Assembly: GCA_001938485.1 (NCBI GenBank)
Contig: MQRK01243661.1
Span: 1 to 64,000, forward strand
Direction of reading: 5' to 3'
Length of the DNA: 64,000 nucleotides
From: Girardia tigrina
Lineage: Eukaryota
A program made the translations under genes and the position numbers. This document shows positions 1 through 57,979 of this stretch, in pieces (within the stretch, counting starts at the first letter, position 1; every line of letters begins with the position of its first letter). The notes under the pieces are model-generated. The model ran no database searches. It worked only from the letters and a program-made list of their open reading frames with translations, and had not been told where the DNA came from.

Positions 1-118
1 TGTAAAACTAAATATTATTTTATTTGAAATTAATGATTTTATTAAAAGAATTATTTAAAAATTTTCCTTTATAAAATTTTATCAAAAGTGTTCATGTATT
101 TTTTCAGAACCCTAACAA

Positions 119-214
119 TTTTTCCACATTAAATTCAGATTTTTTCATAATAAATTGATATTTTTCCACATTAAATACAGAATTTTTCATAATAAATTGA
201 TATTTTTTCACATT
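119..214. repeat. 42-bp tandem repeat, ~2.3 copies
   Basis: TTTTTCCACATTAAAT(T/A)CAGA..TTTTCATAATAAATTGATA at 119-160 and 161-202, partial third copy. Confidence 0.85.
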
Positions 215-265
215 TATTTTTCAACAAATAATACTATTATTACGTCAACAATTATTACGTCAGCG

Positions 266-1150
266 TTAGTGAAGCAGGCAGTGAGTGACTTGGGCTTTTA
301 TAATATAGATTCTATTAAGTAATAAACGCAAATGTTGAAAACTAAGATTAAACATTATATCTTGAATATTATATTTTTTCAAAGTTGCATCATCAACTTC
401 TTCTGGTTTAATATTCTCATTTTCTTTAGGGATATTAAAATTATACCTTCTTGAAAAGGAAGATAATGTACCTAAATATGAATTAATTTTTTGTTTTTGA
501 TAAACTAATAATTTTGCTTTTTCACTATAATTGAAAACATAATTAATTTTTAAATTCATATCAGAAATTGGTTTAAAAATTGTTAGAGAATCAATTTTTT
601 CATTTAATTTTTTAATTCCATCTTCACTCTTTTCCACATTCCGATTAATAATATTATTAATATATTCCACATTCATATTAATAATATTATTAATTTTTTT
701 CATATTCTCTTCAATATTATCATAAATATTTTTCTTACCCCTTTCAATAATACGATAAATTCTTTTTTTATCATCATTAATATCATTAATATCATTATTA
801 ATCTTTTTCATATTTTCACTCATTTCATTATATTGTTTCACCATTGAATCAATTGTAAGTTTCAAATTTCTAATACTTTTCTCAACATCTATATTCCCAA
901 TCTCGATTTTATCTTTAACTTTCAGCGAATTCACAGGATCGTTACCCCCTTCATTCACAAATATCTTATCTAACTTTTTATTATTCACCTCTATAGTTTC
1001 ATTTATTTTTTCTGCATTCGCATATCTCTGATCCGATTCTGATAATATTATCCGATTATTTGCTTGAATTTTTTCAAGTATTTTCTCTTCTCGCATTCCT
1101 CCAATTTGCATCACCATTCCCAATTTATTCACAGGAATGTAATTATTCAT
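266..1150 (-). CDS. Polinton hypothetical coiled-coil, Asn/Ile-rich protein (294 aa)
   Basis: Long ORF, CCAAAAAATG start, heptad-like central region with repeated ENMKKIN; no recognised catalytic motif. Confidence 0.7.
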   Translation of the reverse strand: MNNYIPVNKLGMVMQIGGMREEKILEKIQANNRIILSESDQRYANAEKINETIEVNNKKLDKIFVNEGGNDPVNSLKVKDKIEIGNIDVEKSIRNLKLTIDSMVKQYNEMSENMKKINNDINDINDDKKRIYRIIERGKKNIYDNIEENMKKINNIINMNVEYINNIINRNVEKSEDGIKKLNEKIDSLTIFKPISDMNLKINYVFNYSEKAKLLVYQKQKINSYLGTLSSFSRRYNFNIPKENENIKPEEVDDATLKKYNIQDIMFNLSFQHLRLLLNRIYIIKAQVTHCLLH

Positions 1151-1260
1151 TTTTTGGAATGATTTTGTTTTTGAAGAAAAAAAATCATTCCTATTTTATA
1201 AAATTACAATAACGTCGGCTGTACCGAGTTTCTATAAAAAGGGCCTCTTCGAGGCCACCT

Positions 1261-1839
1261 TTATAGAAGCGATTCCGGCCATAAACAATCTAATATTTCC
1301 TCAATTATATCATCGAATTTATGCGCCAATTGATTCTTCGAATAATTAGCGCATTTATTCTCTTTATTCCAACATTCACACTGATTCATTTTAAATAAAA
1401 AATATAAACTCAATTGTCCACATAGTCGTGTTCCGAAGGGTTGTACTTGTACAGAATTATATATACATTTTGGAAAATCTACTAAAGGCTCTATTCCATA
1501 TGGATCAAAATAGTAAGATACTGGCTCCTTCGTCCCATTATCTTTCTTTAAAGATACTGATTTCTCAAATTCTTTATCTCCATTAAAATATCCCACCCAA
1601 TGACTCCCCTGCTCATCTGAATCCTGGTAATTTATTATTGATAATTTTTTCTGATTTATTTTCGCATCCACTTCATCCGCCATCAAGACTTGTATTTCAA
1701 TTTTCAATTTTCGTCCCCAATCTTCCAACTGTTTATTCGTCGATGTATCAACACCAAACATTTGCATTATATCTTGTAAGTTGTAAAATTCGATCATTTT
1801 TGAGTAGAATTTGTTTTCGTAGAAAAAAATTCTACTCAT
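1261..1839 (-). CDS. Adenain/Ulp1-fold cysteine maturation protease
   Basis: IINYQDSDEQGSHWV (His), YFDPYG (Asp), QVQPFGTRLCG (Gln, Cys); likelier start is the AAAAATG at 1797. Confidence 0.9.
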   Translation of the reverse strand: MSRIFFYENKFYSKMIEFYNLQDIMQMFGVDTSTNKQLEDWGRKLKIEIQVLMADEVDAKINQKKLSIINYQDSDEQGSHWVGYFNGDKEFEKSVSLKKDNGTKEPVSYYFDPYGIEPLVDFPKCIYNSVQVQPFGTRLCGQLSLYFLFKMNQCECWNKENKCANYSKNQLAHKFDDIIEEILDCLWPESLL

Positions 1840-2028
1840 TAATTGATTTTATTCAAAATCAATTAATAAAACATTCACGAGGCTTCGCTGAGCTATCAAA
1901 GTCATTTTTATGACTTGTTAGAATTTTACACCTTCGGTATCCAAATTCTATCCTTTTTGAGTAGAATTTTTTTCTACTAAAACGAGTAGAATTTTTTTTC
2001 TATGAAAACAAATTCTACTCAATTCTAC

Positions 2029-2892
2029 TCATTTTTCCATTATTTGTCTCAGTCTCAAACATAAATTAATTCGCTCATTTCGGAAATCAATTAATCGTCC
2101 TTTGTTGTCAATAATTCTCATAGTAAAATCATTTATCTGATAAATGTATACTGGATAATAAGTTACAAAAGCGGGACGCTCTAAAATCTTATACCCGATT
2201 CCAACTGAAAAAGCAGGAAACGAATAAATCACATTGGAATTCCGCACACTTTCAATAATACTCTTATTTTCCACTTCATTTTCACTTGAAACGTATCCCC
2301 CATTAGCAATATTACAATCGATATTACAAATATTTATATCAGTTATCTGAAAAGTATATTTCGATTCAAAATTTTCCATTGGTCCTGTTAAGAGAATATT
2401 TTCCACATCAAAGAAATAGTTGAATTTGGATTTTTCGAATCCATGCATTGAGTGTAGAATCGATTGATTAGTGAATTCAATGGAATAATTATCCAGGATC
2501 TTGATTCGGGATTTTGATGTTTTCTCATCTGTCNNNNNNNNNNNNNNNNNNNNNNNNNNNNNNNNNNNNNNNNNNNNNNNNNNNNNNNNNNNNNNNNNNN
2601 NNNNNNNNNNNNNNNNTTTTGTATAAAAATAAGCATCATTGTTTTCTCCCCGAATAAGCGAATTCCTAATTCCCTTGATTTCCTTTGGTAAATCTTTTCC
2701 TTTATGTAGAATAATAAAAGAATTGTTTTCCGAAGTGACATTTGCAACAGTATTATAGGTCGAGAACCAGACCAATCCGATTTCGTATTTGTATCGCGGA
2801 TCCAAATTCAACTGAACAGGCAGCTTAACCTTGATTTCTGATTTCGAAGCCGATATTGTAAACGTCGTAGAAAATCCACTAGTCTCGCTCAT
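2029..2892 (-). CDS. Minor capsid protein (penton, single jelly roll)
   Basis: YEIGLVWFSTYNTVANVT..NNSF, NIDCNIANGGY, IYSF, C-terminal IIDNKGRLIDFRNERINLCLRLR typical of Polinton pentons; spans an N-run. Confidence 0.85.
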   Translation of the reverse strand: MSETSGFSTTFTISASKSEIKVKLPVQLNLDPRYKYEIGLVWFSTYNTVANVTSENNSFIILHKGKDLPKEIKGIRNSLIRGENNDAYFYTKXXXXXXXXXXXXXXXXXXXXXXXXXXXXTDEKTSKSRIKILDNYSIEFTNQSILHSMHGFEKSKFNYFFDVENILLTGPMENFESKYTFQITDINICNIDCNIANGGYVSSENEVENKSIIESVRNSNVIYSFPAFSVGIGYKILERPAFVTYYPVYIYQINDFTMRIIDNKGRLIDFRNERINLCLRLRQIMEK

Positions 2893-4099
2893 TTTTGAGA
2901 AAATTTTTTTTCTATGAAAACTTTTTTCAATAATTCCTCCTGTTTTTCTTTTGATAATAATTTTTTTCGTCTTAATTTCTTCATAATATTCAAAATATTA
3001 TCATCCACACCATCATATGACCAGCCTTCTTTGCAGCGATATATTTATACAAATACGAAAACATTGAAATCGGGTCTGAGGGTATTCCCTGTCCTTTTTG
3101 TGATCGTAACCGTGGTAATGATGATGTTTTTTCATCCGTCTCTTTTTTCAGGAGTCCTACTGGTCCCGCAAATTCTCCTACATTTCCTTCAGCTTTATTT
3201 AAAGCATCAAAACAAAGTTTAGTATAATAAAAACTTCTTTCTCGAGCGTTTATTCCATTATTTAATAGAAATGATAAATACTTATCGAATGATGTATGTT
3301 TTTCTTCCATAGTATATTTCTTTTCGAAAATAATTTCATAATTCCCAATTAGGAAATTATTGAAAATCTCATCAAGCTCTACCCGAACCCGATTATCATT
3401 TCTCACGAAATAATATTTTCCACCCTCATTCACGAGAATATATGTATATTTATTGAATGTCATAAATTGTTTTCCCTCAATATTCTTTCCAAACGTTGGA
3501 CGCAACATCGGAGAAGATCCGAAATTTTCATAATATTTTGTCTCAAAGAATATTTCCAAAAATGGAGCAGGTTGCAATAATTGAGGTTCGAATTTCGTTC
3601 CCAATTTCTGTGCCAACTGTTCCAAGAATTTTTTCGAAACCTCATGATGAGTGGTGATAAATTCCTTATCTTGTGGATATTTTTCAGTCATTTCCTGCAT
3701 TATTGGTGCTAATTCCTGTTGGATGAGTAAATATTCCTGTTGGTATTGATCAAAAAACGATTTGGATTTCACATTATCATAATTCTTAATATCGACCTCA
3801 ATAAAACGTTTCAAATCATTTTCCAATTTAACGACTTTGGTTTTTAGAGCTGAGATTCTGTCTGTGATGGGGCCTTGTAATCCAGTCATTAAAGGTTGAA
3901 ACATTTTCGACATTGACGTTTGAAAATCGGATATACCGCTTTTATATTCCAATTCTTGGCGATTGTATTCATGGATTGCTAGTGAGGATTGAATCAAACT
4001 TTTTCGTAAATAATCAAAATATTTTTGATGTTCATTTAAAGGTTGTGAATCTTTGAATACTCGATTTTCTAATAGTGTTCTCATTTTTAAAGCAAACAT
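2889..4099 (-). pseudogene. Polinton conserved protein with 1-nt frameshift near C-terminus
   Basis: 369-aa ORF ends IPSDPISMFSYLYKYIAAKKAGH; after a shift near 3016 it continues DGVDDNILNIMKKLRRKKLLSKEKQEELLKKVFIEKKFSQK*. This matches the recurrent Polinton PSDP..L..L.A.K.AGN helical motif; the stop overlaps the penton ATG (ATGA). Confidence 0.7.
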
Positions 4100-4770
4100 T
4101 TAAATCTGATTCTGATTATTCGGATCCCAAGGTTCCAAATATAATCCCTTTCCCATGAAATGATATTTCAATTTCCCTCCCAATTTTTTATTTTTATTCA
4201 ATAGAGCCTTTTTCGATTTCGGATCTTTATCCGATTGATTTATTTGTTCACGAAAAAATTTCTGAATTCCTTTACCAACATAATCATCCAAGTATAATCC
4301 TTCTCCGAGATCTGTATCTTTTATTCCCAATTCCGATAATATTCCTTTTCCTTTCGATTTCCGTAATCCCGATCCCGTTGGTGCTGTGGCAGGTGGAACC
4401 GCTGGTGTATTCATTTTATCAAGTTCCTTTTGTTTTATTTGTTTTTCAATATCTATTTTCTCTTTTTCAGCCTGAATCTTCTGTGCTTCACGAGAATTCG
4501 CAACAGTTTTTGATACTCCAGCGGCTACTCCAGCGGCTGCTCCTCCTACTGTGAAAAGAGTAGTTAAACCGGCGATTATAGCGGGGATAAACGGTAAAAT
4601 TCCTCCGCTGTGATAATATCCTCCGATCTCTCCTCCATTTTTTCTAAATCTTTAATCTTTTTCAACATTTCCCGATTCAAATAGAATTCCTTCCCATTCA
4701 CTCGAATCAAACCGGGAGTTTGAGTATCTATCAATTTTCGTATTTTTAACGCATCTGTTTTCGGAGCCAT
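4100..4770 (-). pseudogene. Adenovirus pX-like virion core/membrane-active protein, split by one frameshift
   Basis: ORFs 4576-4770 and 4100-4414 join if one A is added to the A6 run at 4638-4643: NGGEIGGYYHSGGILPFIPAIIAGLTTLFTVGGAAAGVAAGVSKTV...GEGLYL...GKGLYLEPW. Confidence 0.8.
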
Positions 4771-4812
4771 TTTTAGAGCAAATTTTGTTTTCCAAGAAAA
4801 AAAATCGTATCT

Positions 4813-6243
4813 TTATTTCTTATCCACGGTTCCTTTGAATGGTTCGATTATCGTGATTTGGGATCCGCGTAGAGACATTTTTATTTTTGCTTCTTCCAAA
4901 ATTACACAATACATTTTCGTTTGAAACTTTTCAGATTTCCGAATGAGAAGTGTAACGGTAACGTTGTTAACATGCAAAGTTTTATCGATATCACTAGTAT
5001 CAAAACACATTATCGGGTATAAACTTTTCCAATCTTTCAACGATAGCATTGGAGCTTTATCTTGGAAACCGCGGGAACATTGAACATATGAATTATATAA
5101 ATCATAGAAATTCNNNNNNNNNNNNNNNNNNNNNNNNNNNNNNNNNNNNNNNNNNNNNNNNNNNNNNNNNNNNNNNNNNNNNNNNNNNNNNNNNNNNNNN
5201 NNNNNNNNNNNNNNNNNNNNNNNNTAATTTGAATCTTGTAATTTCATTCCCACGAAAATATATCTTGGTAAATAATTTAGATATGCAACATTCCAGGAGA
5301 AAACTTTCTCGGTTTTCAAAGAATACTCTACGGATATGCGTTTGAGGAAATCCACATAAATCGGTTTGTCTTTAACATTTAATCGTTCTACCAATCGAGC
5401 ATAATAATCGATATTCAATTCCAATTGATTCATATGCAGTTCCAGGGAATTTATCGTTAATTTTCCTTTGGTTCCTTTTTCTGAATAAAAAATACTTTTA
5501 TCATCAAGTTTTCGCACCATTGTNNNNNNNNNNNNNNNNNNNNNNNNNNNNNNNNNNNNNNNNNNNNNNNNNNNNNAGAGATGTTTCAGTGAGAAAGCAC
5601 CTCTGAATCTATTTTTCTTAAACTGATCTTTCCGAATTTCAAATCCAATATTTTGGTATCGAAGACCCGCTGGAACTTCTTTGGAATTAGCGGCGCCTCC
5701 GCTCGAACCGGGAGTTTCTTCTTCATCTTCAAGAATTTTTGTACTCGTAGATGCGCTTAAGGTTGCGGATGATGCCGCAGCTATTTTCTCTCCATATGTC
5801 ATTTCATAATGATCTGGAATAAAATCAGTTATTTCTCCGCATGGTAAATAGTTTCTATCTTTAGACACATATAATAACATATCCGAAACAACTCCAGGAT
5901 TATTTATCGATTCAACAACATAGTTACCTAATTTCAAAGACATGCATGAAAATAATTTAGGGAAGAAGTTGGTCTCCAAAACACAGTCACTGTCTTCAAT
6001 TTTAATATCATAAACCAGTTTAGCGTTACAAATATCTATCGGATCAGTGGTTTGCGATAATTGGTAAACCAGAGTTCCGTTCTGATTCATGTATGCAGCC
6101 GATCCAGATGTTGGCGCCAGTTTTATTATATCAGATTTTTTCAAAACGTGAGTAAATTCCTTATTGTTATCGAGATCTAAGATTCCCAAGGGAATCATCC
6201 CTGTGGTTAATTGATTTATTGGTTTTTCAAAGCTTGTTTCCAT
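4813..6243 (-). CDS. Major capsid protein (double jelly roll, hexon-like)
   Basis: 476 aa; NFFPKLFS..SLKLG...VESINNPG, FSWNV....PRYIFVG, YPIMCFDTS motifs of Polinton MCPs; located between the pX-like and integrase genes; two N-runs. Confidence 0.88.
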   Translation of the reverse strand: METSFEKPINQLTTGMIPLGILDLDNNKEFTHVLKKSDIIKLAPTSGSAAYMNQNGTLVYQLSQTTDPIDICNAKLVYDIKIEDSDCVLETNFFPKLFSCMSLKLGNYVVESINNPGVVSDMLLYVSKDRNYLPCGEITDFIPDHYEMTYGEKIAAASSATLSASTSTKILEDEEETPGSSGGAANSKEVPAGLRYQNIGFEIRKDQFKKNRFRGAFSLKHLXXXXXXXXXXXXXXXXXXTMVRKLDDKSIFYSEKGTKGKLTINSLELHMNQLELNIDYYARLVERLNVKDKPIYVDFLKRISVEYSLKTEKVFSWNVAYLNYLPRYIFVGMKLQDSNXXXXXXXXXXXXXXXXXXXXXXXXXXXXXXXXXXXXXXNFYDLYNSYVQCSRGFQDKAPMLSLKDWKSLYPIMCFDTSDIDKTLHVNNVTVTLLIRKSEKFQTKMYCVILEEAKIKMSLRGSQITIIEPFKGTVDKK

Positions 6244-6285
6244 TTTTAAAATATTAAATTATTTTGTACTTAACAGGTTAGTTCT

Positions 6286-7744
6286 TCAAACTCCTTTGTT
6301 AAGTACGGATTTTGTTCCAATTTTCGTAATCTGTAAATCCGCTTCATAGAACCGACCGAATAATGCACCATCTTTGGATACGCGCTTTGCGCTATCAAAT
6401 ATGGTGCCTTTTTCAGTTGTAGGATTTATCAACTTATAAGTCACTGGATATTCATGATCCAAAACTTTTGAAATTACGTAAATTTCCCTGGTCCATTTCG
6501 GTTCATATCCTTTTTTAAAAGTCTGTAATTTCCGTTCCTGGTTTTTATTACGAGTACCTTCAGGTTTGTCTCCGCTAAATAATTTTGTTTCGAATACCCG
6601 AACTCGATCTCCGACTTTGAATTTTGGTTTAACTTTTTTCTTGGGTAATTTTTGAGGTTTTGGAAGCGGAATCGCATTATTAAACATTACATCGTGCGGT
6701 GATACGCGGATAGAACTATGAATTATATTATTATAATCAGATAATATTTTTTGCATTTCCAGCTCAGTGATAACTTTCTCTCCTTTCTCGGTAAATAGTT
6801 TATAGATTTCAGATTTTAATGTTCTATTAAATCTTTCAATAAAAACAGGTTTTTCCTTTACGAAATACATTTTAATATTATTGGCTTTTAGGAATTTTTT
6901 CTCGAATTCTTTGTTTGTAAACTCAGCTCCTTGATCAACCCATAAATATTTTGGAATTGGTAATTCGGTATTTCCTAATTCCGTTTAGATTGAAATGAAA
7001 GCTTGGATTATTGATTCAGATTTTTTATTGGGAAGAAAACGGAAAAAACCATACCGGGAATAAATATCTATAACTTTTAAGATATAATATTTCCAAATTT
7101 TTCTGGTTTGTCCTGATTTTGTTATTGTTGTCGCAACGACTCCATTTTCAGTATCTTCTTTAGCGTCAACAGTTATCAAGTCTGCAGACCAAATCCGATT
7201 CAATGATTTAACATTTATGCGGAGAAAGTCTTTATTTCTTTTATGTTCTTTATGTAATTCTTTAGCTAATTGTTTATTATTTTTATCATCAATGGTACCG
7301 CCAAATGCAATTTTACCTTTCATAATTGTTTTTATAAGAAATCTTTCGAATTTTTGTCGCAAAGACAGATCTTGAAGTTGATTAATATCGTGAATAAGAT
7401 TTACATCAGCCAAGTGTCGATCTCGTAAATCTTCAGATCTGTAAGCGATATCATGTTTATAACAGGCTTGATCTAATCCGTCTACTGGTTTATTATCTTC
7501 GCCGATTGGTTGATCTTGGTCGTCTAATCGGATATCCAATCTTGTTAGTGGACCGCAATAATTTTTTCCTGGCAAATGCAGTTCACCGTATTTCGTTTTC
7601 ATAAATCCAGGAATATATTTTGCAAAATTTCCCATAGATTGTTGAACCTTTGGATACGCGCTTCGCGCTATCAAAGACGCCTCCACCTCCGATTGCTCTT
7701 CGAGAATCGAAGTCTCCTCCACCTTCTTTTTTAATAATCATCAT
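6286..7744 (-). pseudogene. Parvovirus VP1u-like PLA2 fused to retroviral-type (rve) DDE integrase; one premature stop
   Basis: HLPGKNYCGP and DQACYKHDIAY (PLA2); IWSADL (D), LWVDQGAEF (D), IERFNRTLK (E), KFKVGDRVR..FKKGYEPKWT. ORFs 6985-7722 and 6286-6870 are in the same frame, separated only by TAA at 6985-6987. Confidence 0.92.
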
Positions 7745-7870
7745 TTTTGGAAGTAATTTATTTTTTAAAAATCAAATGTACTTCTTAATAAAAATTTCCA
7801 ATACTATCAAGCTATTTCTGTAGACATGATATTAAAGGAAGACGGTTAGTAAAGAATAATAATATTTTTT

Positions 7871-8815
7871 TTACTCGCTTTCATCAATTTCAAGATCTGA
7901 GTGCATGTTCGGATTTTCGATTGTTATTTCTTCTTCAGTAAATATATTTTTATAAATTTTTTTCTCAGTGCGATCAAAATAAATATAATTATATTTTTTA
8001 CGCTTCCAGTGATGAATGATTTCCCGCTGATATTCATTAATATTTTCGCTATTGGGTAAGAGATTAGAGAAGATATAAGATTTATCTCTTTTTCCTAATT
8101 CGAAAAAAATGAATCCAGTGGAATTATTCCGGATAGAATGTTTATCCAATCCGTAGAAAGTTTGGGAAATGTATATCGTATTACAGTTATTATGACGTCC
8201 TCTGGTGAAATACGATTTCATTATTTTCTGATCTGACAGATTCACCACGTCATCGAAAATAATGAGATTTTTTACATCTTTCGGTAATGAGTCGCAAGCG
8301 ACGATTTGATTAGGATCCGAAGAAAATAGGACGGATATTGACTTTTCAGGATCTCTAATTAAATATTTTGATTTATCAATATTATTTTTATTATTAATAA
8401 ATCTTTTATACGCATAAACGAGATATTCCGGAGGAGGAATATAATCTTTATCAGAATTATTTCCTAATTCCTCTTTTATCATGGATAATAACATATTTTG
8501 TTTATCAAAGATATCGCGTATTCCGGATTTGGTGAGAGATGATCCGTCTTCAAAACGGAAACCACTTGCAATCACCTTCAATTCCGGTTGATCAATAGTT
8601 GTGGAATAAAATATTAGATTGTTGAAATCTAAAAAATTATCCTCCAATAACATTTTTGCTAGTAAAAAATTTTTACCACATCCCGATTCACCAACGATTA
8701 GTAATCGAAAGTTCTTTGGGAACAATTTATTCTTGAATTTTGACTCATACATTGTTAAAATATTCAGTTTTTCCTTCATTTTTAAGTTGGAAAAGTATTT
8801 TCCAAGCTTAAACAT
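7871..8815 (-). CDS. Genome-packaging ATPase (A32/FtsK-HerA family)
   Basis: Walker A GESGCGKN, Walker B LIIFDD, YFTRGRHNN, YISQ; likelier start is the AAAAATG at 8779. Confidence 0.92.
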   Translation of the reverse strand: MFKLGKYFSNLKMKEKLNILTMYESKFKNKLFPKNFRLLIVGESGCGKNFLLAKMLLEDNFLDFNNLIFYSTTIDQPELKVIASGFRFEDGSSLTKSGIRDIFDKQNMLLSMIKEELGNNSDKDYIPPPEYLVYAYKRFINNKNNIDKSKYLIRDPEKSISVLFSSDPNQIVACDSLPKDVKNLIIFDDVVNLSDQKIMKSYFTRGRHNNCNTIYISQTFYGLDKHSIRNNSTGFIFFELGKRDKSYIFSNLLPNSENINEYQREIIHHWKRKKYNYIYFDRTEKKIYKNIFTEEEITIENPNMHSDLEIDESE

Positions 8816-8907
8816 ACGGAGGCTTCGCCGACCCTTTAGGCATTTTTTAATTTTTTCGAATTTTAGTGAAAAAATTTTGAAAATTTTTCAAATTGTTTTT
8901 AAAGAAA

Positions 8908-9420
8908 ATGAATGAGTCGAAAAAAAATTTGTTAATAAATAAATGTTTAGATTGTGATTTTTTAAAATCGCGATACAATTATGAAAAAGATAGATATATT
9001 ATAGATATATCATTTTATGAAAAAAAGACAGAAGAATATAAATTATTAGCATTTCAATTTCAAACAATGCTAAAAGATAAAAATGAATCATCTGATTTTT
9101 CTAATGAAAAAATATTAAAATTAGAGGAAAAGAATAGGAAATTAGAAAATACTATAAAACTTCTAAAAGAAGAAAATTATAATCTTAATGCGAGATTAAT
9201 GCAAAAAGAAAAAATTGAAGATGAAAATACAATTTTAAAAGATCTTAAAGAACATAATTTAGAAGAAAAAATTTCTTCTTGGGAAATAAATGATGATAAA
9301 TCTTCTTCTATTAATGAAATTACCGAATCTATAACATCTTCAAAAAGAAATGGAAATTATAAAGGAAGAGCAAAAGGACAAACTAATTTAAAAACAAGAC
9401 AAAAAGAAAATAAGATTTAA
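8908..9420 (+). CDS. Polinton accessory coiled-coil protein
   Basis: ORF with AAAGAAAATG start, divergent from ATPase; CLDC and a leucine-heptad segment. Confidence 0.6.
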   Translation: MNESKKNLLINKCLDCDFLKSRYNYEKDRYIIDISFYEKKTEEYKLLAFQFQTMLKDKNESSDFSNEKILKLEEKNRKLENTIKLLKEENYNLNARLMQKEKIEDENTILKDLKEHNLEEKISSWEINDDKSSSINEITESITSSKRNGNYKGRAKGQTNLKTRQKENKI

Positions 9421-9460
9421 TTGGATTTTGGATTTGGATTTGGATTTGGATTTGGATTTG
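9421..9460. repeat. (GGATTT)n hexamer array
   Basis: About 6 copies, intergenic. Confidence 0.9.
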
Positions 9461-9493
9461 AGAATTTATAAATTCTATTATATTTTAAAGAAA

Positions 9494-9789
9494 ATGAATA
9501 AAAATAATTTAAAATATGAAAATCAATACGATATTAATAAAATAGGTATACGAATAACAAAAGAAAAGATTATAAAAGATAATGAAATAAAGATTGGAGT
9601 ATATAAAAATGCTATAATAAATTTTAATTATTTTATTAACAAGAATGAAAAAAATACCCTAACTGGAAATTAATTAAAGATAAAAAGAAAGATAGAGAAA
9701 TGTTAAAAAATAAGATTATTGATCTTGAAAATGAAACCAATGAAATAAGAGAAAAATGTAATGATAATAATATTGATGATTTTATTTAA
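9494..9789 (+). pseudogene. Small Polinton accessory protein, frameshifted in A7 run
   Basis: AAAGAAAATG at 9494; adding one A at 9648-9654 gives continuation YPNWKLIKDKKKDREMLKNKIIDLENETNEIREKCNDNNIDDFI*. Confidence 0.5.
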
Positions 9790-9952
9790 AAAATAATTTT
9801 AATTTCTTATACAAATTGATTTTTTTTATTGAAAAATAAAAAATTATCCATTTGAATATTGAAATTAGTATGTCACTATCGTATAGATAGGGATTTATTA
9901 CAAATGGATAGAGTAAAACTACCGCGTTTTTTCTGGTTCATTTTGAATTGGA

Positions 9953-10438
9953 TTAAACTGGTTTGGATTGAATTTTATCACTGATGGCAATTTCACTACA
10001 AATCTCGTTATCAATTATTAAAGAATGGTAACATTCTCTTAATAATGAGGCATAACGCATATTTTTATTGGTGGAGATTTTTTTATGACTATTTTCCTTT
10101 ATTGATTTTAATTCATCATAAAATTCTCCAGCTTTATTTTCATCATATTTCCCGATTTCGGAAATAGTTTTATCTAACATTACTGCTAAGTCTTCATTTT
10201 CTTGTTTTAATCCTTCGATTTCATCTAAATCATTACATCGTTTCAATAATTGATCCTCAAGCATTAAATTTATTCCGTTTACCATATAATTCAGTTTAAC
10301 ATTATCAACAACGATTTTTTCTCCTTCAACAGCTTTTGTAGTTATATTCAATTGATTAAACTTCTTTAATGCTCTCGAAGAAGCATCTCTAAAATCCTTT
10401 TTCTTTTTCATCTCTTTTTTATAAATTTCAAGATCCAT
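9953..10438 (-). CDS. Polinton accessory helical protein (161 aa)
   Basis: ORF with AAAAATG start; no recognised motif. Confidence 0.6.
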   Translation of the reverse strand: MDLEIYKKEMKKKKDFRDASSRALKKFNQLNITTKAVEGEKIVVDNVKLNYMVNGINLMLEDQLLKRCNDLDEIEGLKQENEDLAVMLDKTISEIGKYDENKAGEFYDELKSIKENSHKKISTNKNMRYASLLRECYHSLIIDNEICSEIAISDKIQSKPV

Positions 10439-10470
10439 TTTTTATTTAATTAAAATAAGATTTAATCTTT

Positions 10471-10965
10471 TCAACTTAAACCAATAGCGAGAAGTTCTTC
10501 TTTAAACTTTTCTACTCTCGATGATTTATTCTGTTTTAAAGTTCTTAAGGATTCGGATTCATATTCGGATTCAACAACATCGAGTTTTCCTTTTCCAATT
10601 TCAACTTCTTTTTTCGATTTCGGTTTTGATTTTGATTTCGGTTTCGATTTCGATTCCGATTCCACTATCTCTTGAATTTTCTTTTTATTTTTCGTTTTAA
10701 GACGATTATCATATCTATTCAAAGATGGAATATTCAATTCTTGTAAAGCTCTTGAAAATTTGTATGGTGTAGAACCAATTTTTTTACAGATATCTTTATG
10801 TTTAAGACCAGTATTCATATTTTTCTCATAATCCTCCATCCATTTATAATATCTTTGATATCTCAGAAAAAATGCATTAGCTCGTACATCTTCTTTAATG
10901 AGATTTAAATCCAAATCCTCAAGTTTTTTTATATTATCATAATCAAGCGAATTTTTTTTACTCAT
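10471..10965 (-). CDS. Putative helix-turn-helix DNA-binding protein with SK/PK-rich basic tail
   Basis: LKHKDICKKIGSTPYKFSRALQELNI has HTH-like spacing; ESESKSKPKSKSKPKSKK encoded by hexamer repeats. Confidence 0.55.
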   Translation of the reverse strand: MSKKNSLDYDNIKKLEDLDLNLIKEDVRANAFFLRYQRYYKWMEDYEKNMNTGLKHKDICKKIGSTPYKFSRALQELNIPSLNRYDNRLKTKNKKKIQEIVESESKSKPKSKSKPKSKKEVEIGKGKLDVVESEYESESLRTLKQNKSSRVEKFKEELLAIGLS

Positions 10966-11687
10966 TTTTTCTTTAAAATAAAATGGTTTGTAAAATTTTT
11001 TATGAAAGTGGGGGAGATTTGTTAGAAATATACATAGATTCTTTTTTTCCTCATAAAAATCATATAAAATATTCTAAATTTTGAAATAAACTAGTGCAAA
11101 ATAGGGTAAAATCGATGAATTTTTCGATTTTAAGAATATTGTATGTAGTATTTTTTTATGCAAAATGTTCATTAACATTTTTTAATTAAAATCCCAAACA
11201 AAAAGTTAGCAAAAATATTCATATTAACCATTAAAAATTAAAATATATACATTTTTTAAAATATATTACTTATTAATTTATCAGTAATTAATGTTGATTT
11301 TTTTAGATATTTCATTTTTATGTGATTATATTTCANNNNNNNNNNNNNNNNNNNNNNNNNNNNNNNNNNNNNNNNNNNNNNNNNNNNNNNNNNNNNNNAT
11401 CAATTTTATTTTTAATAATTAATAAAAAACGGTATGTAAATAGATACATTAAAACTTATAACATAATATCATGCACCTAAGGTATTAGGCGCTATTTATA
11501 ATGAGAGCAACTCTCCAGTAGTTCAATACATTATTTAATGGGCTGCAGACCTGTTATCTTAATGCTATTGCTGCGCGTTGATAATATAATATTCTGGGAG
11601 ATTCTAGATAATCTCAGAATATTAGAAAAATCGACAGTCAGTTGCTCTTGGAACCGGTTCCTAAAAACGGCCGAGATCTCAAAACAA

Positions 11688-12116
11688 CATCCAAATCAAA
11701 TCAAATCAAATCAGATGGAATCAAATCAAATTCAAATCAAATCCAAATCCAAAATCCAAATCCAAAAAGAAAAAAAACAAAAAAAACAAAAAAAAGAAAA
11801 AAACAAAAAAAATCGATTTTTCTGAATTTTTATAGTGTTTTATCGATAAAATATTCGATTACTCATTTTTGTTATAAATAATATAACATTTTTTATATCA
11901 ATCAGCCATACTACGGTATGGCTTTTTGGTATCCATTTTTTTTCTTCGAGTTCTCATTTTTGATATAAATAATATAACATTTTGAATTTTATTAGTGTTT
12001 TATCGATAAAATAGCTATTTTATCGATAAAATATTTGATTTTTATATAACTTCGAAAAAGGTGCGAAAAACGTTATTTTTGAAGGGTTTAGGGTATACCC
12101 ACGAAACTATATTACT
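11688..12116. repeat. Candidate Polinton terminal (TIR) region: CAAAT/CCAAAT arrays, A-rich tract, direct repeats and palindromes
   Basis: (CAAAT)n ~11692-11765; TATCGATA at 11841, 12001, 12021; perfect 34-bp palindrome 11998-12031; hairpin AGCCATAC-TACG-GTATGGCT at ~11904-11923. Confidence 0.6.
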
Positions 12117-13155
12117 GGTGGGTCCAGCGATTTGTGAAAATTTGTTACACGTGGGATGAACCGGTCGAAAATTCCGATTTTTTGCTTTAAGTATTAAATG
12201 AATACTCCCTTATTTCTTAATATTTTGTTTAAACGATTTTATTTTTGTATTGTTAATAACGTTTTGAATAACTTTTTTTTACTTTTTATTTGAAATGGAA
12301 AATAATAATTATATGAAAATCTACCCAGTTAGCAAAGTAAAAGAAACATAATTTGAAATGCATAAACATATAACCATTGTAGGCATCTTATTAACTATTA
12401 TTAATCTAATGAAAAAATAATTAGGATTGAAATTAAATAAATTTAGTTCAATAATTTATACAATACTTTAATCAAAGTTTTTTCATAAGAAAAGTTTAGA
12501 TTATTGGGCTTAAAATGCTGTTTTCTTTTAATTTATTTTCATCATTGTTGATAAAGATAATGTACTGATGAATATTTCTAACCAACGCTTAATATTCACA
12601 TGCAATTAATTTTATAATAATTTTAATAATTGAACAAATAAAAAAATAGTCTTTAGGGTTTATTTTTATTTGACTTTTTAAATGAAATAATATATTAATA
12701 TTTGCTCATAAATGCTAAAAATTCGATTACATTAAATAAATTTAATAGTGAATCTTTAATTCAACTTAAAAGTTTTCATTTGATATTATGCTTGACTAAA
12801 TCGATCGGGAGTAGAAAGACACAAAAGGTTAAGTACATTTTTTAAACAAAAAACTTTTGTAGTAAATTTTTCTTCACTTTGTTACGGAGATGGGGCTAAA
12901 ACTGTAGGAAATATGTGAAGCAATACATAATTTTTCAACTGCTTCTTACAAATGAAATAATTTTATAAAATTTTACACTATTATAAAAAAAATCCGTTTA
13001 TTTAACAAAATTTAGATCATTATTTAAATACAAATCAAATCAAAATTAACATAAAAAATTAAATAATGATCCAAATCTTTTAATGCACCAAATAATAATA
13101 ATATCGAGAAAACAATTTAAAAACATGTTTTTTGAATTATGTTTTTATTTTTTTA

Positions 13156-13221
13156 ATGGAAAATTGTAATTTTGAAGAGGAAATAAAATTAAAGTTTGAT
13201 TTATCTGATAAAGAATTAGAA
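13156..13221 (+). CDS. PTPN9: PTPN9-like coding exon 1
   Basis: MENCNFEEEIKLKFDLSDKELE then GT; 49-nt intron to TTTTCAG; phase 0. Confidence 0.65.
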
Positions 13222-16200
13222 GTGGAATTCTATCTTTATCGTTAATTTAATTGTCATGGGATTTTTTCAGGATATCAAATCATTTTTAAAAGCGGTCCAA
13301 AGTGAATCTTTTGATAAGAAAAATGGAGAAATGGCAGTCAAATTTTTACGTGCCAAAAAATTTAATATTGATGCAGCTTTAGATTTGTATCAAAGACATG
13401 AAGTAGTTTCGATTAGTTTTTTTTAATAATTATTTTCAATCATGTCTCTTTATTTATCTATTAAGACAATTCGAACAAAAGAAAATCTTTTCGAAATCAA
13501 TCCATTTGATAAAGATATTCTTAATGAGTTAATGTCCCAAAAGTTTACATTTTTAGTACGATTATTATTGAAATATTTGGTGCAAATTTAGCGTGACGTA
13601 TGCTAACATGATATTAGTTAAAATTAATTAATTATCAAACTGTAATCTGTGAAAGAAACTACCTTAAAGGGTTTCCACTTTTAAATGTGATTTTTTTTCA
13701 TTTTGAAGTGTGAATATTTCCACTTTGAAGTGTGAAAACTTTATAAATAAATTTACTACTGATATATTGAAAATAATTTAATAAATATAGGCTTGTTTCA
13801 CGGGCTGACTGAAACAATTTCATCTTTGTTGATGAAGTTGGCTTCAATATAAGCATGCGCTGCCGATATGGAAGAAGTGAGCGTGGTCATGCAGCAATTC
13901 AGCGCCTTCAAAATATCAGAAGTAGAAATATTTCCGTTTGTTGTGGACTGCTTAAGACCAGTGTGCTGTACTATAAAAGGCAAAATCGTGCTTTCAATAC
14001 TGAAACCTTTCTAGAATTTATTGATGATACCGTAGCTAAACTGGCCGAAATGAATATGAGTAATGTGATGTTTATTATAGACAATGTCGCATTCCATAAG
14101 TTCCACCTTGTTGCAGAAAAAGTAACAGCTTCCGGGCATACCATTCATTTTTTGCCACCCTACTCCCCATTTTTGAATCCTATCGAGAACATGTTTTCTG
14201 AGGTAAACCAGTGTATTAGAGTTGCCCGCCCTCATAATGAAGAGCAGTTATTCACCAGTATCGACTCCTCTTTTAATGCAGTTGTATCAAATAGCTGTGA
14301 AAATTACTATCGGCACATGCTATCTTTTATTCCGAAATGTTTGAACAGAGAAATAATTGATGATGAAAATTATAATTAAATCATTACATGAAAGTGTTTT
14401 TTATTTAACAATTTTTTTACATGTTTTCATATAACTTTTTCATCTTTTTAATTTTCACACTTCAAAATGAAAAAAATCACATTTAAAAGTTGAAACCCTG
14501 TATATTGTATGTTCCAGATTTCTACAACCTTTACTAACTAGTCAGATAATAATAATTTCTAAATTTTATTCATGTTATTTTTCCACTAAGAAAATATATT
14601 TTCAGTATGATTAAACTGGTGAATTTAGTATAAAAATTGACAAATAAATGGCGTTTCCTGAAAAATTTATTATTCAAAAGCATATGCTTATTATTCACTT
14701 TGCCAAACAACTGCAACACTTATTGTTGAAATAATAGTAAGACATTTGTTCTTACAATGGTGACAACAAATCTTAAAATGTAAATATAAATAAGATTTAA
14801 TTGTTCTATAATCGATGATTCATTATAAAATTACTGTAATTCACGAAATCTAGATTTATATATATTGATCATTTGTTATAATGATTCCCGATTTAAAAAT
14901 GGAGATTTACTTCTGTTTTTATGTGACAAAAATATCGAATGTATGAGTCTTCAGATTAAAAAATAAAAAAACATTAAACTTTCTGATAGACGATGCACTA
15001 ATTTTGTACCAAATAAATTATATGTTTACTTATTTAACATTTTAGACCGATATCGATAGTAAATCAGGTGCATCTATTTGTATTTTTACTGCCAGACTTC
15101 ATCATCCTTCGAAAGCTTCACACCAACACGTTCTGAAAGCTCTCATATTTCAATTAGATGCAATCATTTTATTGTATGATTCGTTATTTTTGTAAAATTT
15201 AAATAAATTTCATTGAAGGCCGTCTACTCAAAAAAATGGATTGATATTTATCTATAATATGACCGGCTCACTGTATTCCAATTTTGACATGACTCTTAGT
15301 GTTAAAATTCTCAATTTATTAAAAGTAAGATTAAAGATTAATTAATTGTCAAAATAAAATTATATAACATATCAGTAAAGGTTTTAATAGAAGTTTTCTT
15401 TAATAAATAAATGAACGAAGAAAAGACATAAATGTTACTCATCATATTTTTAAACCTTTAAGTTAATTTAAGGCCTGATTACAGAAATTAAAAACACTAC
15501 CAATGATTATCTTGTTTTAAAATGATAAATTGTCTTTAAATGAACATGGAAAACAGCAAATTTGATGTTTTTAATATTTCCATTGGGGATTATGTACTAT
15601 CACTAAAGATTCTAGTTTCGATCTTTTTGTTAATTTTTTTCTAATGCTAGTTCAAAAATTTATTTCACCTTCATCATATGCAAATACACATAAAAACGAA
15701 GTTTGGAATTATTATTAATTTTATTATTCTACATATTTAACCCTTCGTAATTTGGTGTGACACTTCTGTAACAAACCGTTGTAACTCTTACAGGATCTAT
15801 AACTATTAACATATCACATTTTAAATCACTTTTGCATGTCTGTTACACACCGATCAATACAACATCGGTGATTTATTAGTACCTAAAGGTGGCGTTGGTG
15901 GTAGGATGATGAATTTGACAGTTCTCTCTATTGAGTTGCGAAGTTCTATTGAGTTACGAAGGATTAATAAAAAATTGATATTGATATCATTGAAAATAAA
16001 TACCGTATTTTTTTCTGAAAATTCCTTTATCCGGAAAAGCTAGGTGACAAAGAACTAAGTTTTCTTGTAAATAAACGTCCAGAGCTTATAAACGTAAAAT
16101 GTTACTGAAAGTAATTGTGCAAATATATTCGCGGTATTACATCATTGTACTCTAATCGGACATGAAACTTAGTAAAAAAATTACATTTTCCTAACGTGAA

Positions 16201-18278
16201 TTTATACTAAAACAGATAAAAAGGTCAATATCCAAAGCAGCACACGTGTAAGACACGAGGAATACATAGTTTTCGGATTTGCGAAATTTAATAATTAATT
16301 AATTACACTATTTAGTAAAGAATTCATAATAAAAAATGGATATACGGTAATTTAATATTTTTGTATTTAAAACAATTACAGTAATTTTAATCCTAATTAA
16401 CAATATAAATTATACATATTCTATAATATTAATTATACAAAAAACACAATAATGTATTATAAAACAATCACCACACAGTAAAGTTAAATATTGCATGTTA
16501 AAATCTAGAGTTATTTTACATCTTCAATGTCAGTACTGTCTGAGTCGGTGTCCAATAAGTCAGTGAATTATAAAAACAGTCCACAGCCTTCTTAAAGTTC
16601 TTATTTTCAATTTTGGTAACGTTGATTGGAAACCAAAACATAAAGACAATATATAAAGCCCATGGACGTAAAATCGGGTGGGTGTATTCTCAGAAAAATA
16701 CGGTAATTAGTTTTAAAGCATTGCTATTAAAATCTATTAATCATTGATTACAAAAATATTTTCCCGATAAAATTTCAAATTTTTTAATACATTTAAAATT
16801 TTATCAATATTAGTTTTAAATTAATTTAAAAAAAAATAATTCAATAAAAACAATCTATTTAATTTTTGTCGATTTTCAAAAAGTAAATAATATATTGTTT
16901 AATTTTATTTTATTTGTTTATTAATTTCTCTTTACTTTTTTGTGTTTCCCTTAAGCAAATTTTCATTGCGCAATTATTCTATGTTATTCACACATAAAAA
17001 TTAGTAATGAACTTTTTTAATCGTCAGTTTATGTAACAAAGTTTTTGTGTTTGATTATTTTTTTATTTTGAATATTTAAATTTACTTAATATTATAACAA
17101 CCTATTTCTGAGACATTTGTAATGTGACTTAAAATTCGTCAGTTGATTTAGATTTGTTTGTTTGTCTGAGATGTCGTTCGACATATACTTTCATACTTAT
17201 AAAAATTGTGAGAATATTTTCATATGTTTTATAAATAGTGACGTGCTATAGAGAAATAATCCGAACACCAAGAAACGATTGCTCTATAAAGTAGCTGGAG
17301 TTAGATAGTTGGATAATAGAGATTGTCATGCTGATTAATATAATAATAAATTATTCTATTTTTTATATTCTATAACATCCAAATACTTTCGTGTTTCTCA
17401 AAGTGTGGTTTGTGTATCAATATGTGTACACAAAAGGATACGCGAAGAATTCTGGAACATTTATATTTTTTCATATACTCACTCTCATTTGACTTATTCG
17501 TCAAGTACAAATTCTTTTCTAGTTCGTTTGACTTATATATATGTCGTGTAAATAAAGTACCTTTTGTTTTCAGTATATTTGCTATCTCTTTGGTATATTT
17601 ATATCTATTGACTACTCTACCTTGCGTTTGGCGTATAAATATGCGAACACTAATTTTAATTAAACGCCCGGAAATATTTTTTGAAAATAGATTATTCGTT
17701 TACCTCTTACTATGAAAATAATTTCAAATATTTAGTGACCTTTCAATAAGTTGCTTACGAGTAAAATAGGTGTTCAAATTAAAGTTGTAATAATAACAAA
17801 ATGAAATCGTTATTGGGTAAATGATTTCATGATTTCAATATACATTAGTATAAATATTTGTTTCGTTTCTTGTCAGTCATAATTAATATTTGTGTTGAGT
17901 TCCAAATGTCACTTATATTATTATTTTACGTCGTTTATCTTTATTAGCCCAAAAAGACTTTACACAACGTTCCCTAAACTAAATAATGCAAATGAACAAG
18001 CACTGTAGATTCGTTCTAACGTCGTGGGTCAAGATATAATGTCATCGAGTATCAAAATCTTTATGAATTATCCATAACCACATGAGCGATACGAATATGA
18101 TTTTGGATGTGACACCGCATCTTATGTTAAAATGGAAAACTAAGGACAAAATTATTTTAAAGTTCCGTTTTAACATAAGTCCTATTGACCTTCTCATAAC
18201 TTAAATTACTTTTATTTAATAATATTGTTACTAAATTTGTGTACATATTATTTATTTTTCCTCTTTATATTTTATATC

Positions 18279-18335
<57 letters not shown>

Positions 18336-18385
18336 NNNNNNNNNNNNNNNNNNNNNNNNNNNNNNNNNNNNNNNNNNNNNNNNNN

Positions 18386-18433
<48 letters not shown>

Positions 18434-21400
18434 TATATCACTCGGATTCCATGAATTAAAAAAGAATAAACCGAAAGTTTCGGTTTTTCATGTATGACGA
18501 CATTTGTAGTGAAAGGGTTCGTGTCAAATGACCGAAATTTATTATTTTAAAAATACAATAAATTTAAAATTAGTTGTTTTGAGGAAGATTTTAAATGTTA
18601 TGTACGCCGTTGTATGGTATATTGTATTATGTTATTTTTCATTTTAAATTGAGATTTTTTTATTTTAAAATAAAAGTGCAATAACACATTACTTGTCTCT
18701 TTAAATAAAAGTTTTTATCTTTGGATTTTTTTAGAAAATTTCTTTTATTATTTTAGATTATTAATCTTTTTAATTTATACTTAGATTTTTGATTTAAATT
18801 GAAGATATTCGATTTCGATTTGTATTTTTTATTTAGAATTGAAACATTTGATATAAATTCTGAAATTTTTATTCTGAAATTATTTTTATAATTTTAAAGC
18901 ATTTATATTTTATAATTATAATTTAATACTTGAGTAATTTCATATACAGGTAATAAAAATAATGTTTATATTTCCATTATTATTTAATTATTTATTTAAA
19001 AAAAATATAAAATTAAAAAATATCTTTCAAAATTAAAAAAAAATTGATAAAAAATAAATAAAAATCTATGTTATTAGAGTAATTAAAAATATTAAAATAA
19101 ATATTATATTTAGATATTTATAAATGACCAAGAAAAGGTATTGAAATAAAATATACATCATTTTAAAATAAAAAAAATCTCAATTTAAAATGAAGAAAAT
19201 ATCATTTTAACATGAAAAATAACATAATACCACACAAAGACATACATAGCATTTAAAATATTCCTCGTTATCCAATGATTATTAAAAAATCATCCTCTGT
19301 ATCCACGATATCACAGAATCGTTAATCATGATCTTTAACCATATTTAACAATAAGTTTTTCTTTAAATAATTAATTTTTTTTATTTTTCTGTTTTATATT
19401 CATCCACATTTACATTCCTCAAGTTGACTGAACTATTTTCTTTTCCATAGTCTCTGGTTAATTTTTTTCTAAATTTTCCTCAATTAAACTTATTTAAAAA
19501 TTTGTAACAATAAGTGTGCAAAAATTTATAAAATAAAAAAAACTTTTCCATTGAAAATTTCACATTCATTTTTTAAAATAATGTGAAATTAGTAATTATC
19601 TAATTTGTCAATCCAAAAAATTGCAGCGACCGAAAAAATATTTCTTTAATGTTAAACGACTTAATGTCTTCTTGTCAGTCGTGTTTTAAAGATATGGTAT
19701 CATCAGAATATATTTCTGGTTGTCTAAAGATCAATGTGAAATGAAAATTAAATACTATTTTTGTAAATATATTTGCATTTATTATTGTAAAAAAACAAAA
19801 ATGAATATTTCGGTTTATAAATAATTTAATCAACAGATTTGTTGAAAATAAATGAATAATAAAGTTTTACATAATAATAAATTCAAGAATTTCCATTTAC
19901 ACTGTGTAACAATTCTGATACAATCACAAAGTTGCGTGTTTTTTTTATAATTCGAGCTCCTGAATACGAACATCATATTAGTTTTGCTTCAGAGTCTGTT
20001 GTTTTATCAGCAAGGAAATATTAACGGAAAATGCAATGAACTGGAATTATTTTGCTGAATCGGGTTATAACAAATTCAATATGTTCATAAATCGTTGGGA
20101 CTCAGATTTGCATCTGTAAATAGCATCAGGAACATCTTGTAAATGCTTAACAATAATCAACCGACTTTGAGGCCTTCTTATTACCTTGTTTAATATTTCT
20201 CTAGAGCGTCAATATTCTTATGGAATCTTTCACCGTGTTCATCAGTTAAACTGCTTAGATTTTCGGAAGAGAAATTCAGGTGTAAATGACAATCAATCTT
20301 TAGGGACATATTGACTTTCTTCCAAGCTGTTTATGCATTCAGCACAGGTCAATCAAACAAGGTTATGAAGTTCAAGTCTTTCTCAAACTTCTTCATTTGT
20401 GGACTCACTAAAAAATTCTTTTAACTTCGTAATTTAAATTCATAGAAGAAAGAAACTAACATTTTTGAGATCAATGGAATGATGGTGAATTGGATTTTCT
20501 TTTCTTTTAGTTCCAAAGTCGTACTTCATGGACAGTCTTCAACAAAATAGCATTGAGTCCTGTATCGAATGTGTCATCAATGAAACTATAACACTTATGT
20601 GTATCCCAACTGCAACCTCAAAATAAAGGCTGGAAAATTTAAATAATAACATATCTAACAGTTATAATCATTGTGCTTAATTTTATCCTAAAGATTCGAG
20701 ATTTTTAAATGTATTTTTCATCTTAACTGCATCTTAATTTATACTAATTGAAATTTATTACCATATGTAAGAGTTACGTTTGGAAACATTAAATATCTTA
20801 GGATTCGATTCTGTCCAAAGTTAAAGAAACATTCACAGAGAAAAAATGTAGTATAAGTTTGTAGTAATCACACCAACAATAATTAATAAGATTAATCACA
20901 ATAATAAAATCTCTGTACTAAGTAAACCCAATTTGTGGTTTACAATAATTATAAAATTTTACATTCAATAGAGAAAGTCCACGCTTTCCACATCATTTTC
21001 TCCAACACAGCAGTTGTTGCTGCAACACTCCCTACCATTGCTGCCGATTTAATCATTTAAGCATCAGTTCAACAAATTCTCTAAATTAACTTTATTTGTA
21101 ATTATAAAATAACTTATCGAAAAAGTCTAAACAAATAAAGAATTTAACTGGTAAATATTTTCTAATTTCAGTTTCTAAGAATTTTATGAAATCTTATAAT
21201 TTTACTATTTATATTTACTTATTTATTCTTTAATAAAAATTATTTTTACATTAAATACCGAATTGGATTTATTAGGTTGATGCATAAGTTTTTAGCCTAT
21301 TTTTAATACTTTTATCAAAGAATTTCTAAAGGAACTACAAAATATTAATCAGTGAAGTATTCGCCGTTACAATCAATTACTTTCTGTCATCTTTCTGGTA

Positions 21401-38531: not shown

Positions 38532-38582
<51 letters not shown>

Positions 38583-57855: not shown

Positions 57856-57979
57856 GTAACTTTTAATTTATTTCACAAGTATACATCAATATTATTTAGC
57901 AAATATAGAATAACTTGAAACACTTGTAGTTTAAAAAGTTCTTTTATTTTCATTTTACAAAAGAGACTGGTGTTATATA

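Follow-up and report, generated by a model that had tools for sequence, protein, structure and literature searches.

A probable degraded Polinton/Maverick element of a divergent lineage, with a PLA2-integrase fusion, next to a PTPN9-like gene

Introduction

Polintons/Mavericks (class Polintoviricetes; PMC4028283, PMC8097293) are elements of animal genomes that have five core genes, intronless gene packing, target-site duplications of 5-8 bp and terminal inverted repeats with an AG- or AGT-type end, published as (AGT)2 (PMC8097293). The Mavericks of vertebrate genomes are mostly degraded (PMC8097293). Here we describe a locus of this kind in a 64,000-nucleotide stretch of Girardia tigrina DNA (contig MQRK01243661.1, positions 1 to 64,000; hereafter the window), in which the right part of an endogenous Polinton/Maverick occupies positions 1-12116, the element continuing past position 1. 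The locus has the five core genes, the intronless packing and the animal genome in common with Polintons/Mavericks, together with a candidate AGT-type end. It differs from them in the GKN Walker A motif of its packaging ATPase, in several broken genes and in its distant sequences, and a DNA polymerase B of the protein-primed kind (pPolB), a second terminal repeat and a target-site duplication are not seen in the window.

Two other groups invite comparison. Alpha adintoviruses, or group 2 Maverick-Polintons (PMC8502044; bioRxiv 10.64898/2026.06.19.733378), likewise have virion modules that include a parvovirus-type phospholipase A2 (PLA2) as well as a pX-like protein. In the adintovirus protein PLA2X, however, the PLA2 carries a C-terminal pX (PMC8502044), whereas in the window the PLA2 sits on the integrase and the pX-like protein is encoded separately, beyond the major capsid protein (MCP) gene. 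Adintovirus integrases also typically end in a chromodomain (PMC11071296), which the window integrase lacks. Further adintovirus marks (Starrett 2021; Buck 2024) are an OTU domain at the N-terminus of PolB and a hexon that recovers, and is recovered by, reference adintoviruses in BLASTp. One preprint uses the adintovirus and Maverick-Polinton names as synonyms (bioRxiv 10.64898/2026.06.19.733378). The virophages mavirus and Sputnik have similar MCP and penton folds at ~10-14% identity, and mavirus also has an rve integrase, a pPolB and a lipase (PMC3671162). The virophage lipase is of the Lipase_3/alpha-beta type rather than a PLA2, and virophages are parasites of protist giant viruses.

Results and Discussion

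The window carries a Polinton gene set

Five of seven Polinton/Maverick features are present in the window: a double jelly-roll MCP, a penton near the MCP, an A32/FtsK ATPase, an adenovirus-type protease and an rve DDE integrase, the last broken by a stop codon (Table 1). In our view the locus is, with good confidence, an animal-infecting Polinton/Maverick (a polintovirus) that integrated ~1 kb upstream of a PTPN9-like gene; what remains is a genomic fossil at an early stage, of which the right part lies in the window. From the right end, the gene order is two ORFans, two plus-strand ORFans, ATPase, PLA2-integrase, MCP, pX-like gene, a conserved 369-aa gene, penton, protease and a 294-aa ORFan. 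Genes are intronless and mostly on the minus strand, they occupy ~90% of the sequence between 266 and 10965 (broken genes included), and AAAAATG stands at 9 of 11 listed candidate starts. A first-pass annotation of the window had called the MCP, penton, ATPase, protease, pX-like protein, PLA2 plus integrase and five to six ORFans as intronless genes, and we confirmed their coordinates. Its picture of tight packing holds for the coding share but was overstated for TAAATG/ATGA-type junctions, which occur at only two of the nine boundaries between successive minus-strand genes; the other gaps comprise six of 32-235 nt and one of 1173 nt that contains two plus-strand open reading frames (ORFs).

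For comparison we scanned metagenomes by an ATPase pattern, which yielded at least 257 confirmed ATPases among at least 599 matches, and kept 80 loci (given L numbers below). These loci share the gene set in shuffled order, with 20 protease ORFs, 25 penton, 19 MCP, 32 integrase C-half and 8 pX-like.

Capsid, packaging and maturation genes

Structure models support a double jelly roll for the MCP and a single jelly roll for the penton. The MCP matched Pfam PF21738 below cut-off (E 8.2e-5), and its AlphaFold2 model (83 sequences; pLDDT 85.9, pTM 0.85) recovered capsid proteins of PBCV-1 (E 3e-10), Sputnik (1.8e-8) and mavirus (2.8e-8) by Foldseek; it carries a ~45-aa lineage-specific insert. The penton model (20 sequences, pLDDT 69) gave VIA Z scores of 12.5 to a PBCV-1 chain, 11.6 to the mavirus penton, 11.5 to Sputnik and 9.3 to aviadenovirus. 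All six of its best structural matches among 48,161 chains were viral capsid chains, and the protein matched the MELD-virus penton at E 1.4e-9. The first-pass annotation had said that its reading would fall if these two candidates failed to model as jelly rolls, and both models show that fold.

The protease was recognized through its family. As a single sequence it had no Pfam or PDB match, but a 15-sequence profile reached adenain (1avp, E 4.5e-6) and African swine fever virus (ASFV) S273R (E 8.2e-5), and Peptidase_C5 was matched by six of the 15 family members, though not by the window protein alone. His, Gln and Cys are invariant in all 15 rows of the alignment and Asp is present in 13. The pX-like protein carries 10 GG/GxG motifs within its last 183 aa; the L001 homologue of its gene matched Adeno_PX weakly and below cut-off (E 9e-4). 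The 369-aa protein has a C-terminal domain of the type GxG..P.DP..L..AA.KAGH, which matches an L001 ORF at E 2.6e-4, and it belongs to no family in Pfam, PHROGs or the ESM Atlas. Bacterial LXG-type clusters that the Atlas returned as candidates for it were rejected (scores <0.9, low recognition). Compared without reference profiles, neither the 369-aa nor the pX-like protein gave a match in Pfam or the Atlas of the GasderminX/cupiennin type that marks the virion module of beta adintoviruses.

The integrase is fused to a PLA2 of the parvovirus type, with the DDE domain following in the same frame. The L001 integrase aligns over positions 7647-6331 in a single frame (39% identity, E 1.7e-84). 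A search for a chromodomain found no Chromo match, and the window frame stops where the chromodomain of the relatives starts. The presence of a PLA2 is a hint of group 2 membership. No named adintovirus was among 7 and 23 matches of the MCP, in a comparison without adintovirus reference sequences, and the likeness is a structural match alone at 10% identity. With neither chromodomain nor PLA2X arrangement, the element should not be classed as an adintovirus sensu stricto. The earlier statement that this gene set defines Polintons/adintoviruses thus stands for Polintons and not for adintoviruses, whose defining pPolB would in addition lie beyond the window.

Right end, proposed life cycle and replication

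The right end at 12116, read from the minus strand, is 5'-AGTAAT and matches (AGT)2 at five of six positions, making 12116 a plausible end of the element; the other end lies outside the window, and a partner for the terminal repeat was not found within it. No pPolB lies within the window, and tblastn with three related pPolBs gave no match there. Among seven large ORFs scanned beside related ATPases, three were pPolB (L022, L059 and L016), none of them in the window's nearest ATPase clade.

If the element worked as its gene set suggests, MCP trimers and penton vertices would assemble into an icosahedral shell, into which the A32 ATPase would pump a linear genome. The adenain-type protease would then mature the particle, putatively by cutting core proteins at GG/GxG. 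On entry, the parvovirus-type PLA2 would breach the endosome (a role taken from PMC4642659), and the rve integrase would insert the genome, as the literature describes for such enzymes. PLA2 and integrase would probably be packaged together and freed by the protease, and replication would probably depend on a protein-primed PolB encoded to the left of the window.

Several points weigh against this reading. AGTAAT has only six letters, lies in AT-rich DNA and might have arisen by chance. The element leaves the window at position 1, with neither pPolB nor the left repeat nor a target-site duplication in view. The GG/GxG motifs do not match the adenovirus P4 preference. The breaks described below may be assembly errors, one of them lying in an A run. 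Finally, group 2 elements often have no pPolB (bioRxiv 10.64898/2026.06.19.733378). An unlikely alternative is a group 2 Polinton-like element that replicates by a helicase or primase-polymerase instead of pPolB, or else a truncated, helper-dependent piece made of virion module and integrase. The window holds no pPolB, and in group 2 a PLA2 is common and pPolB is often replaced (bioRxiv 10.64898/2026.06.19.733378). However, the window simply stops, 12 kb fits part of a 13-25 kb element, and pPolB does occur in three related loci, albeit outside the nearest ATPase clade.

The element is probably decaying

Comparison with unbroken relatives revealed three damaged genes. In the integrase gene, an in-frame stop codon at 6985-6987 falls between the first two catalytic Asp residues, as judged against the unbroken L001 integrase. 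Relatives of the pX-like protein align in frame -2 and then -1, with the change near 4640. In the 369-aa gene, an L005 ORF aligns in two frames that change near 3005; this alignment is weak (E 0.002) and is backed by the L001 sequence. Further breaks are likely at the 5' end of the integrase gene and in the ORF at 9494, for which there is no homologue as proof. We also considered whether the integrase stop is a natural split between PLA2 and integrase genes and rejected this, because the stop lies inside the catalytic core while split relatives break at the domain junction. Where the sequence is unmasked, the frames of the MCP, penton, ATPase and protease are all open; short N-masked stretches in the MCP and penton could hide further breaks.

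The virion-morphogenesis module is therefore not "full", as the first-pass annotation had it, and the accompanying idea of an insertion recent enough to keep long ORFs is overstated in view of the three broken genes. Barring assembly error, the element is not an "intact" Maverick as defined by Barreat and Katzourakis (2021), in which all core ORFs are free of stops and frameshifts. Judged by its sequence, this copy is unable to make a whole integrase or pX-like protein; most likely it is an early-stage fossil that could at most supply or borrow proteins in trans.

It is improbable that the element is instead intact and potentially active, with the stop and frame changes being assembly errors. 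The pX break does fall in a homopolymer run and four core genes are open. Furthermore, four sequencing runs from three studies contained 0.20-0.49 of the sampled words, and since the best two (0.49 and 0.47) hold only about half, other versions of the sequence exist; the best run may be the source, and five further runs with shares below 0.2 were set aside. On the other hand, the integrase break is a stop codon rather than an indel, three supported and two likely breaks occur together with a partial duplication, neighbouring host exons and long frames read cleanly, and degradation is the usual state of Mavericks in vertebrate genomes (PMC8097293). The contrast between open MCP, penton, ATPase and protease genes and broken integrase and pX-like genes would also be expected if the host had co-opted a capsid module and selection maintained those four genes while the integrase decayed. 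We regard this as extremely unlikely: the pX-like and 369-aa genes belong to the virion block and are nonetheless broken, and with three to five breaks spread over 12 kb, four genes can escape damage by chance.

Relatives are unnamed and mostly distant

At E <=0.001, an MCP profile picked up 1054 representatives, 150 of them listed. Within the protein collection compared, the best full-length identity was 32%, with fragments reaching 89.5%, 83% and 75%, and none of 20 homologues looked up had an informative name. For the ATPase, 84 homologues were found among 1029 candidates (best full-length identity 54%). In a quick 71-row ATPase tree, the window protein groups with nine unnamed proteins (SH-aLRT 99). 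Nine of the 71 rows, the window protein plus P0173 and P0175-P0181, have a Walker A GKN in place of GKT/S, and all nine fall in one 10-row clade; GKN was accordingly rejected as a lesion, being common to eight relatives. Protein and hairpin-pattern scans of IMG/VR gave no match. The proposal of a divergent lineage is borne out in the collections searched, which hold no close named relative. That the lineage is "possibly undescribed" is true insofar as all relatives are unnamed, but close fragments (75-90% identity) are already in public data. Degraded Polintons are known from many animals; the locus is a further case, in an invertebrate-like genome, and adds a divergent unnamed lineage.

Examples of such unnamed metagenomic Polintons are L001, L005, L007 and L056, which have the same gene set with PLA2 and integrase in one frame. 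L001, L005 and L007 also lack a chromodomain, and L056 resembles the window in its order of MCP, pX, (ATPase), conserved ORF, penton and protease. All four differ from the window element in protein sequence (~27-47% identity), unbroken frames, another ATPase position, the absence of start-proximal hairpins and a GKT Walker A.

As these relatives come from environmental metagenomes, and adintoviruses have been reported as contaminants of genome projects (Starrett et al., PMC8502044), the element might be a viral contig from a co-sequenced organism that was mis-joined to host DNA. This is very unlikely, in that several disabling breaks speak for residence in a genome, the junction falls at an end-like motif and GC content is alike (30% in the element, 27-28% in the host DNA).

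Some large ORFs beside related ATPases had no Pfam match at E 0.001 (L013:31-2982, L016:1398-3014, L074:6044-7657 and L041:2-1561) and are possible divergent replicases.

The PLA2-integrase fusion as a candidate virion polyprotein

On sequence evidence, many related metagenomic loci share the PLA2-integrase fusion, which is not peculiar to the window. PLA2 and rve occur together in 11 of 12 related integrase ORFs, which were chosen for matching both halves, and seven of the 12 have a chromodomain. Clusters in the ESM Atlas that are automatically named for a PLA2-integrase fusion scored 0.81-0.88 and serve as leads only. A GG/GxG motif marks the C-boundary of the PLA2 in 23 of 26 aligned ORFs and the N-boundary in all 19 that have a leader, and six other PLA2 ORFs begin exactly at the N-boundary motif point. 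In total, 42 of 64 GG/GxG motifs in PLA2 ORFs fall within the two boundary column blocks; the window protein carries the C-side motif. Glycine motifs are where adenain, ASFV S273R and the mavirus protease cut. Because PLA2 and integrase share one frame bounded by such motifs, they would probably be co-packaged and released by the protease, which suggests that the fusion is a virion-packaged polyprotein, putatively processed at GG/GxG.

The junction varies among relatives. Across 30 ORFs including the window, the integrase starts in frame with the PLA2 in 14, in the -1 frame in seven and in the +1 frame in two, and was not found in seven. The -1-frame integrases (L017, L031, L034, L041, L069, L072 and L073) sit behind an A run, with an in-frame X XXY YYZ heptamer in six of the seven, whereas the window integrase is in frame and has no slippery site. 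Near relatives differ in junction state (L073 versus L078, L017 versus L016), and five of the seven -1 cases apparently form one close group. The -1 junctions may thus be programmed slippage, as in Gag-Pol, or homopolymer noise.

A wider model can be offered tentatively, and we think it more doubtful than probable: widespread undescribed Polintons may deliver their integrase retrovirus-style, as part of a virion polyprotein of zinc-finger leader, PLA2 and integrase that the protease cuts at GG/GxG, with the -1 frame in some of them yielding abundant PLA2 and scarce PLA2-integrase (compare Gag and Gag-Pol). The window element would be a further subclade, set apart by its GKN Walker A, the missing chromodomain and hairpins before its starts. 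We found no published description of a PLA2-integrase fusion in the literature searched, although the fusion may be known from Repbase, subscription journals, figures or bioRxiv supplements, which lay outside its coverage. The fusion is the useful lead from this locus, as no Maverick-Polinton virion has been observed so far (bioRxiv 10.64898/2026.06.19.733378). With the integrase fused to an entry enzyme and conserved glycine motifs at both borders, packaging and proteolytic release are directly testable.

Hairpins and palindromes

Related AT-rich hairpins end 0-5 nt before gene starts in the element (1154-1193, 1801-1838, 1984-2020, 2895-2930, 8781-8815 and 8869-8899). The element has nine palindromes compared with a mean of 1.2 (maximum 4) over 25 block shuffles. 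A hairpin accompanies 7 of 12 element starts, compared with 9 of 49 AAAAATG controls from host DNA (0 of 300 shuffles), with a threshold picked after seeing the data and a weaker signal once the two best are removed. Apart from one TA repeat, start-proximal hairpins were not seen at 30 starts of relatives. A mimivirus-like 3' hairpin rule is not favoured, as the hairpins also lie between divergent starts and are absent from relatives. GNA-triloop mini-hairpins were rejected as an enriched class (stem 3, 8 versus a shuffle mean of 3.4 and maximum of 9; stem 4 borderline, 4 versus a maximum of 3 in 60 shuffles). Separately, a 28-bp GC-rich hairpin unit occurs twice at the window integrase gene (6372-6399 and 7648-7675, the latter in the probable 5' end), and an 11-bp GC-rich hairpin unit occurs three times inside L001 genes (882, 4460 and 5795).

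ORFans and flanking host gene

None of the ORFans matched Pfam above cut-off, PHROGs or the 80 related loci; this holds individually for those at 266, 8908 and 9953. The basic ORFan at 10471, the one tested against PDB, had neither a PDB nor a PHROG match. The 294-aa ORFan is possibly a fibre or core protein, and its proposed equivalence to a 538-aa neighbour in L074 was rejected for want of similarity. No Rfam families or tRNAs were found in 1-13200.

Table 1 Features of the element and its flank (positions in the window).
Position	Strand	Feature	Basis
266..1150	-	Low-complexity ORFan, 294 aa, probably coiled-coil	ORF call; start hairpin 1154-1193
1261..1797	-	Adenain-type (C5) cysteine maturation protease, unbroken, likely start 1797	Family profile
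1940..2022	-	Degenerate copy of protease start region, with second start hairpin (1984-2020)	Repeat family D13
2029..2892	-	Penton, predicted single jelly-roll minor capsid protein, open frame, partly N-masked	Fold match
2889..4099	-	Conserved Polinton gene (369 aa) between pX and penton, likely start 4084	Relatives
4100..4770	-	pX (mu)-like core polyprotein, frame change near 4640 in A run	Relatives' alignment
4813..6243	-	Predicted double jelly-roll MCP, 476 aa, open frame, partly N-masked	Fold match
6286..7635	-	PLA2-rve integrase fusion, DDE and PLA2 His-Asp motifs present	PF08398 E 3.9e-10
7636..7744	-	Probable original 5' end of integrase gene (AAAAATG at 7744, frame differs from PLA2 domain)	Inference
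7871..8779	-	A32/FtsK-like packaging ATPase, unbroken, Walker A GESGCGKN	Pox_A32 E 3.1e-8
8908..9420	+	ORFan, 170 aa, divergent from ATPase	ORF call
9494..9788	+	Small ORFan, apparently split across two frames	Frame reading, without homologue as support
9953..10438	-	ORFan, 161 aa	ORF call
10471..10965	-	Basic ORFan, 164 aa, weak helix-turn-helix hint	HTH_Crp_2 E 0.085
10966..12116	.	Non-coding end region, short tandem repeats and palindromes, candidate terminal inverted repeat	End motif
13156..57918	+	Host gene, CRAL-TRIO plus tyrosine phosphatase (PTPN9/MEG2-like), outside element	CRAL_TRIO E 2.2e-8, Y_phosphatase E 5e-13

The flanking gene combines CRAL-TRIO and tyrosine phosphatase domains, an architecture that we take to be PTPN9/MEG2-like and that indicates an animal host. 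Its PDB matches include PTPN9 (E 9e-10), with receptor-type tyrosine phosphatases scoring higher. The element ends ~1 kb from the start codon of this gene (12117-13155), in its likely promoter region. A 305-aa open frame at 53123-54040 within the gene, without a Pfam match, is probably a large linker exon. The introns hold relics of Tc1, mariner, RTE-type and gypsy-type elements; across the flank, transposon relics at 13813-14379, 21476-22368, 47853-48908, 54818-55288 and 62842-63798 comprise Tc1/mariner transposases, a fragment of a gypsy-type integrase and an RTE-like reverse transcriptase, and one mariner ORF of 351 aa is almost full-length. Pairs of inverted repeats separated by 0.7-2.1 kb (24660-25809, 30713-31629, 32782-35045 and 35690-36601) are probably decayed DNA transposons or resemble miniature inverted-repeat transposable elements.

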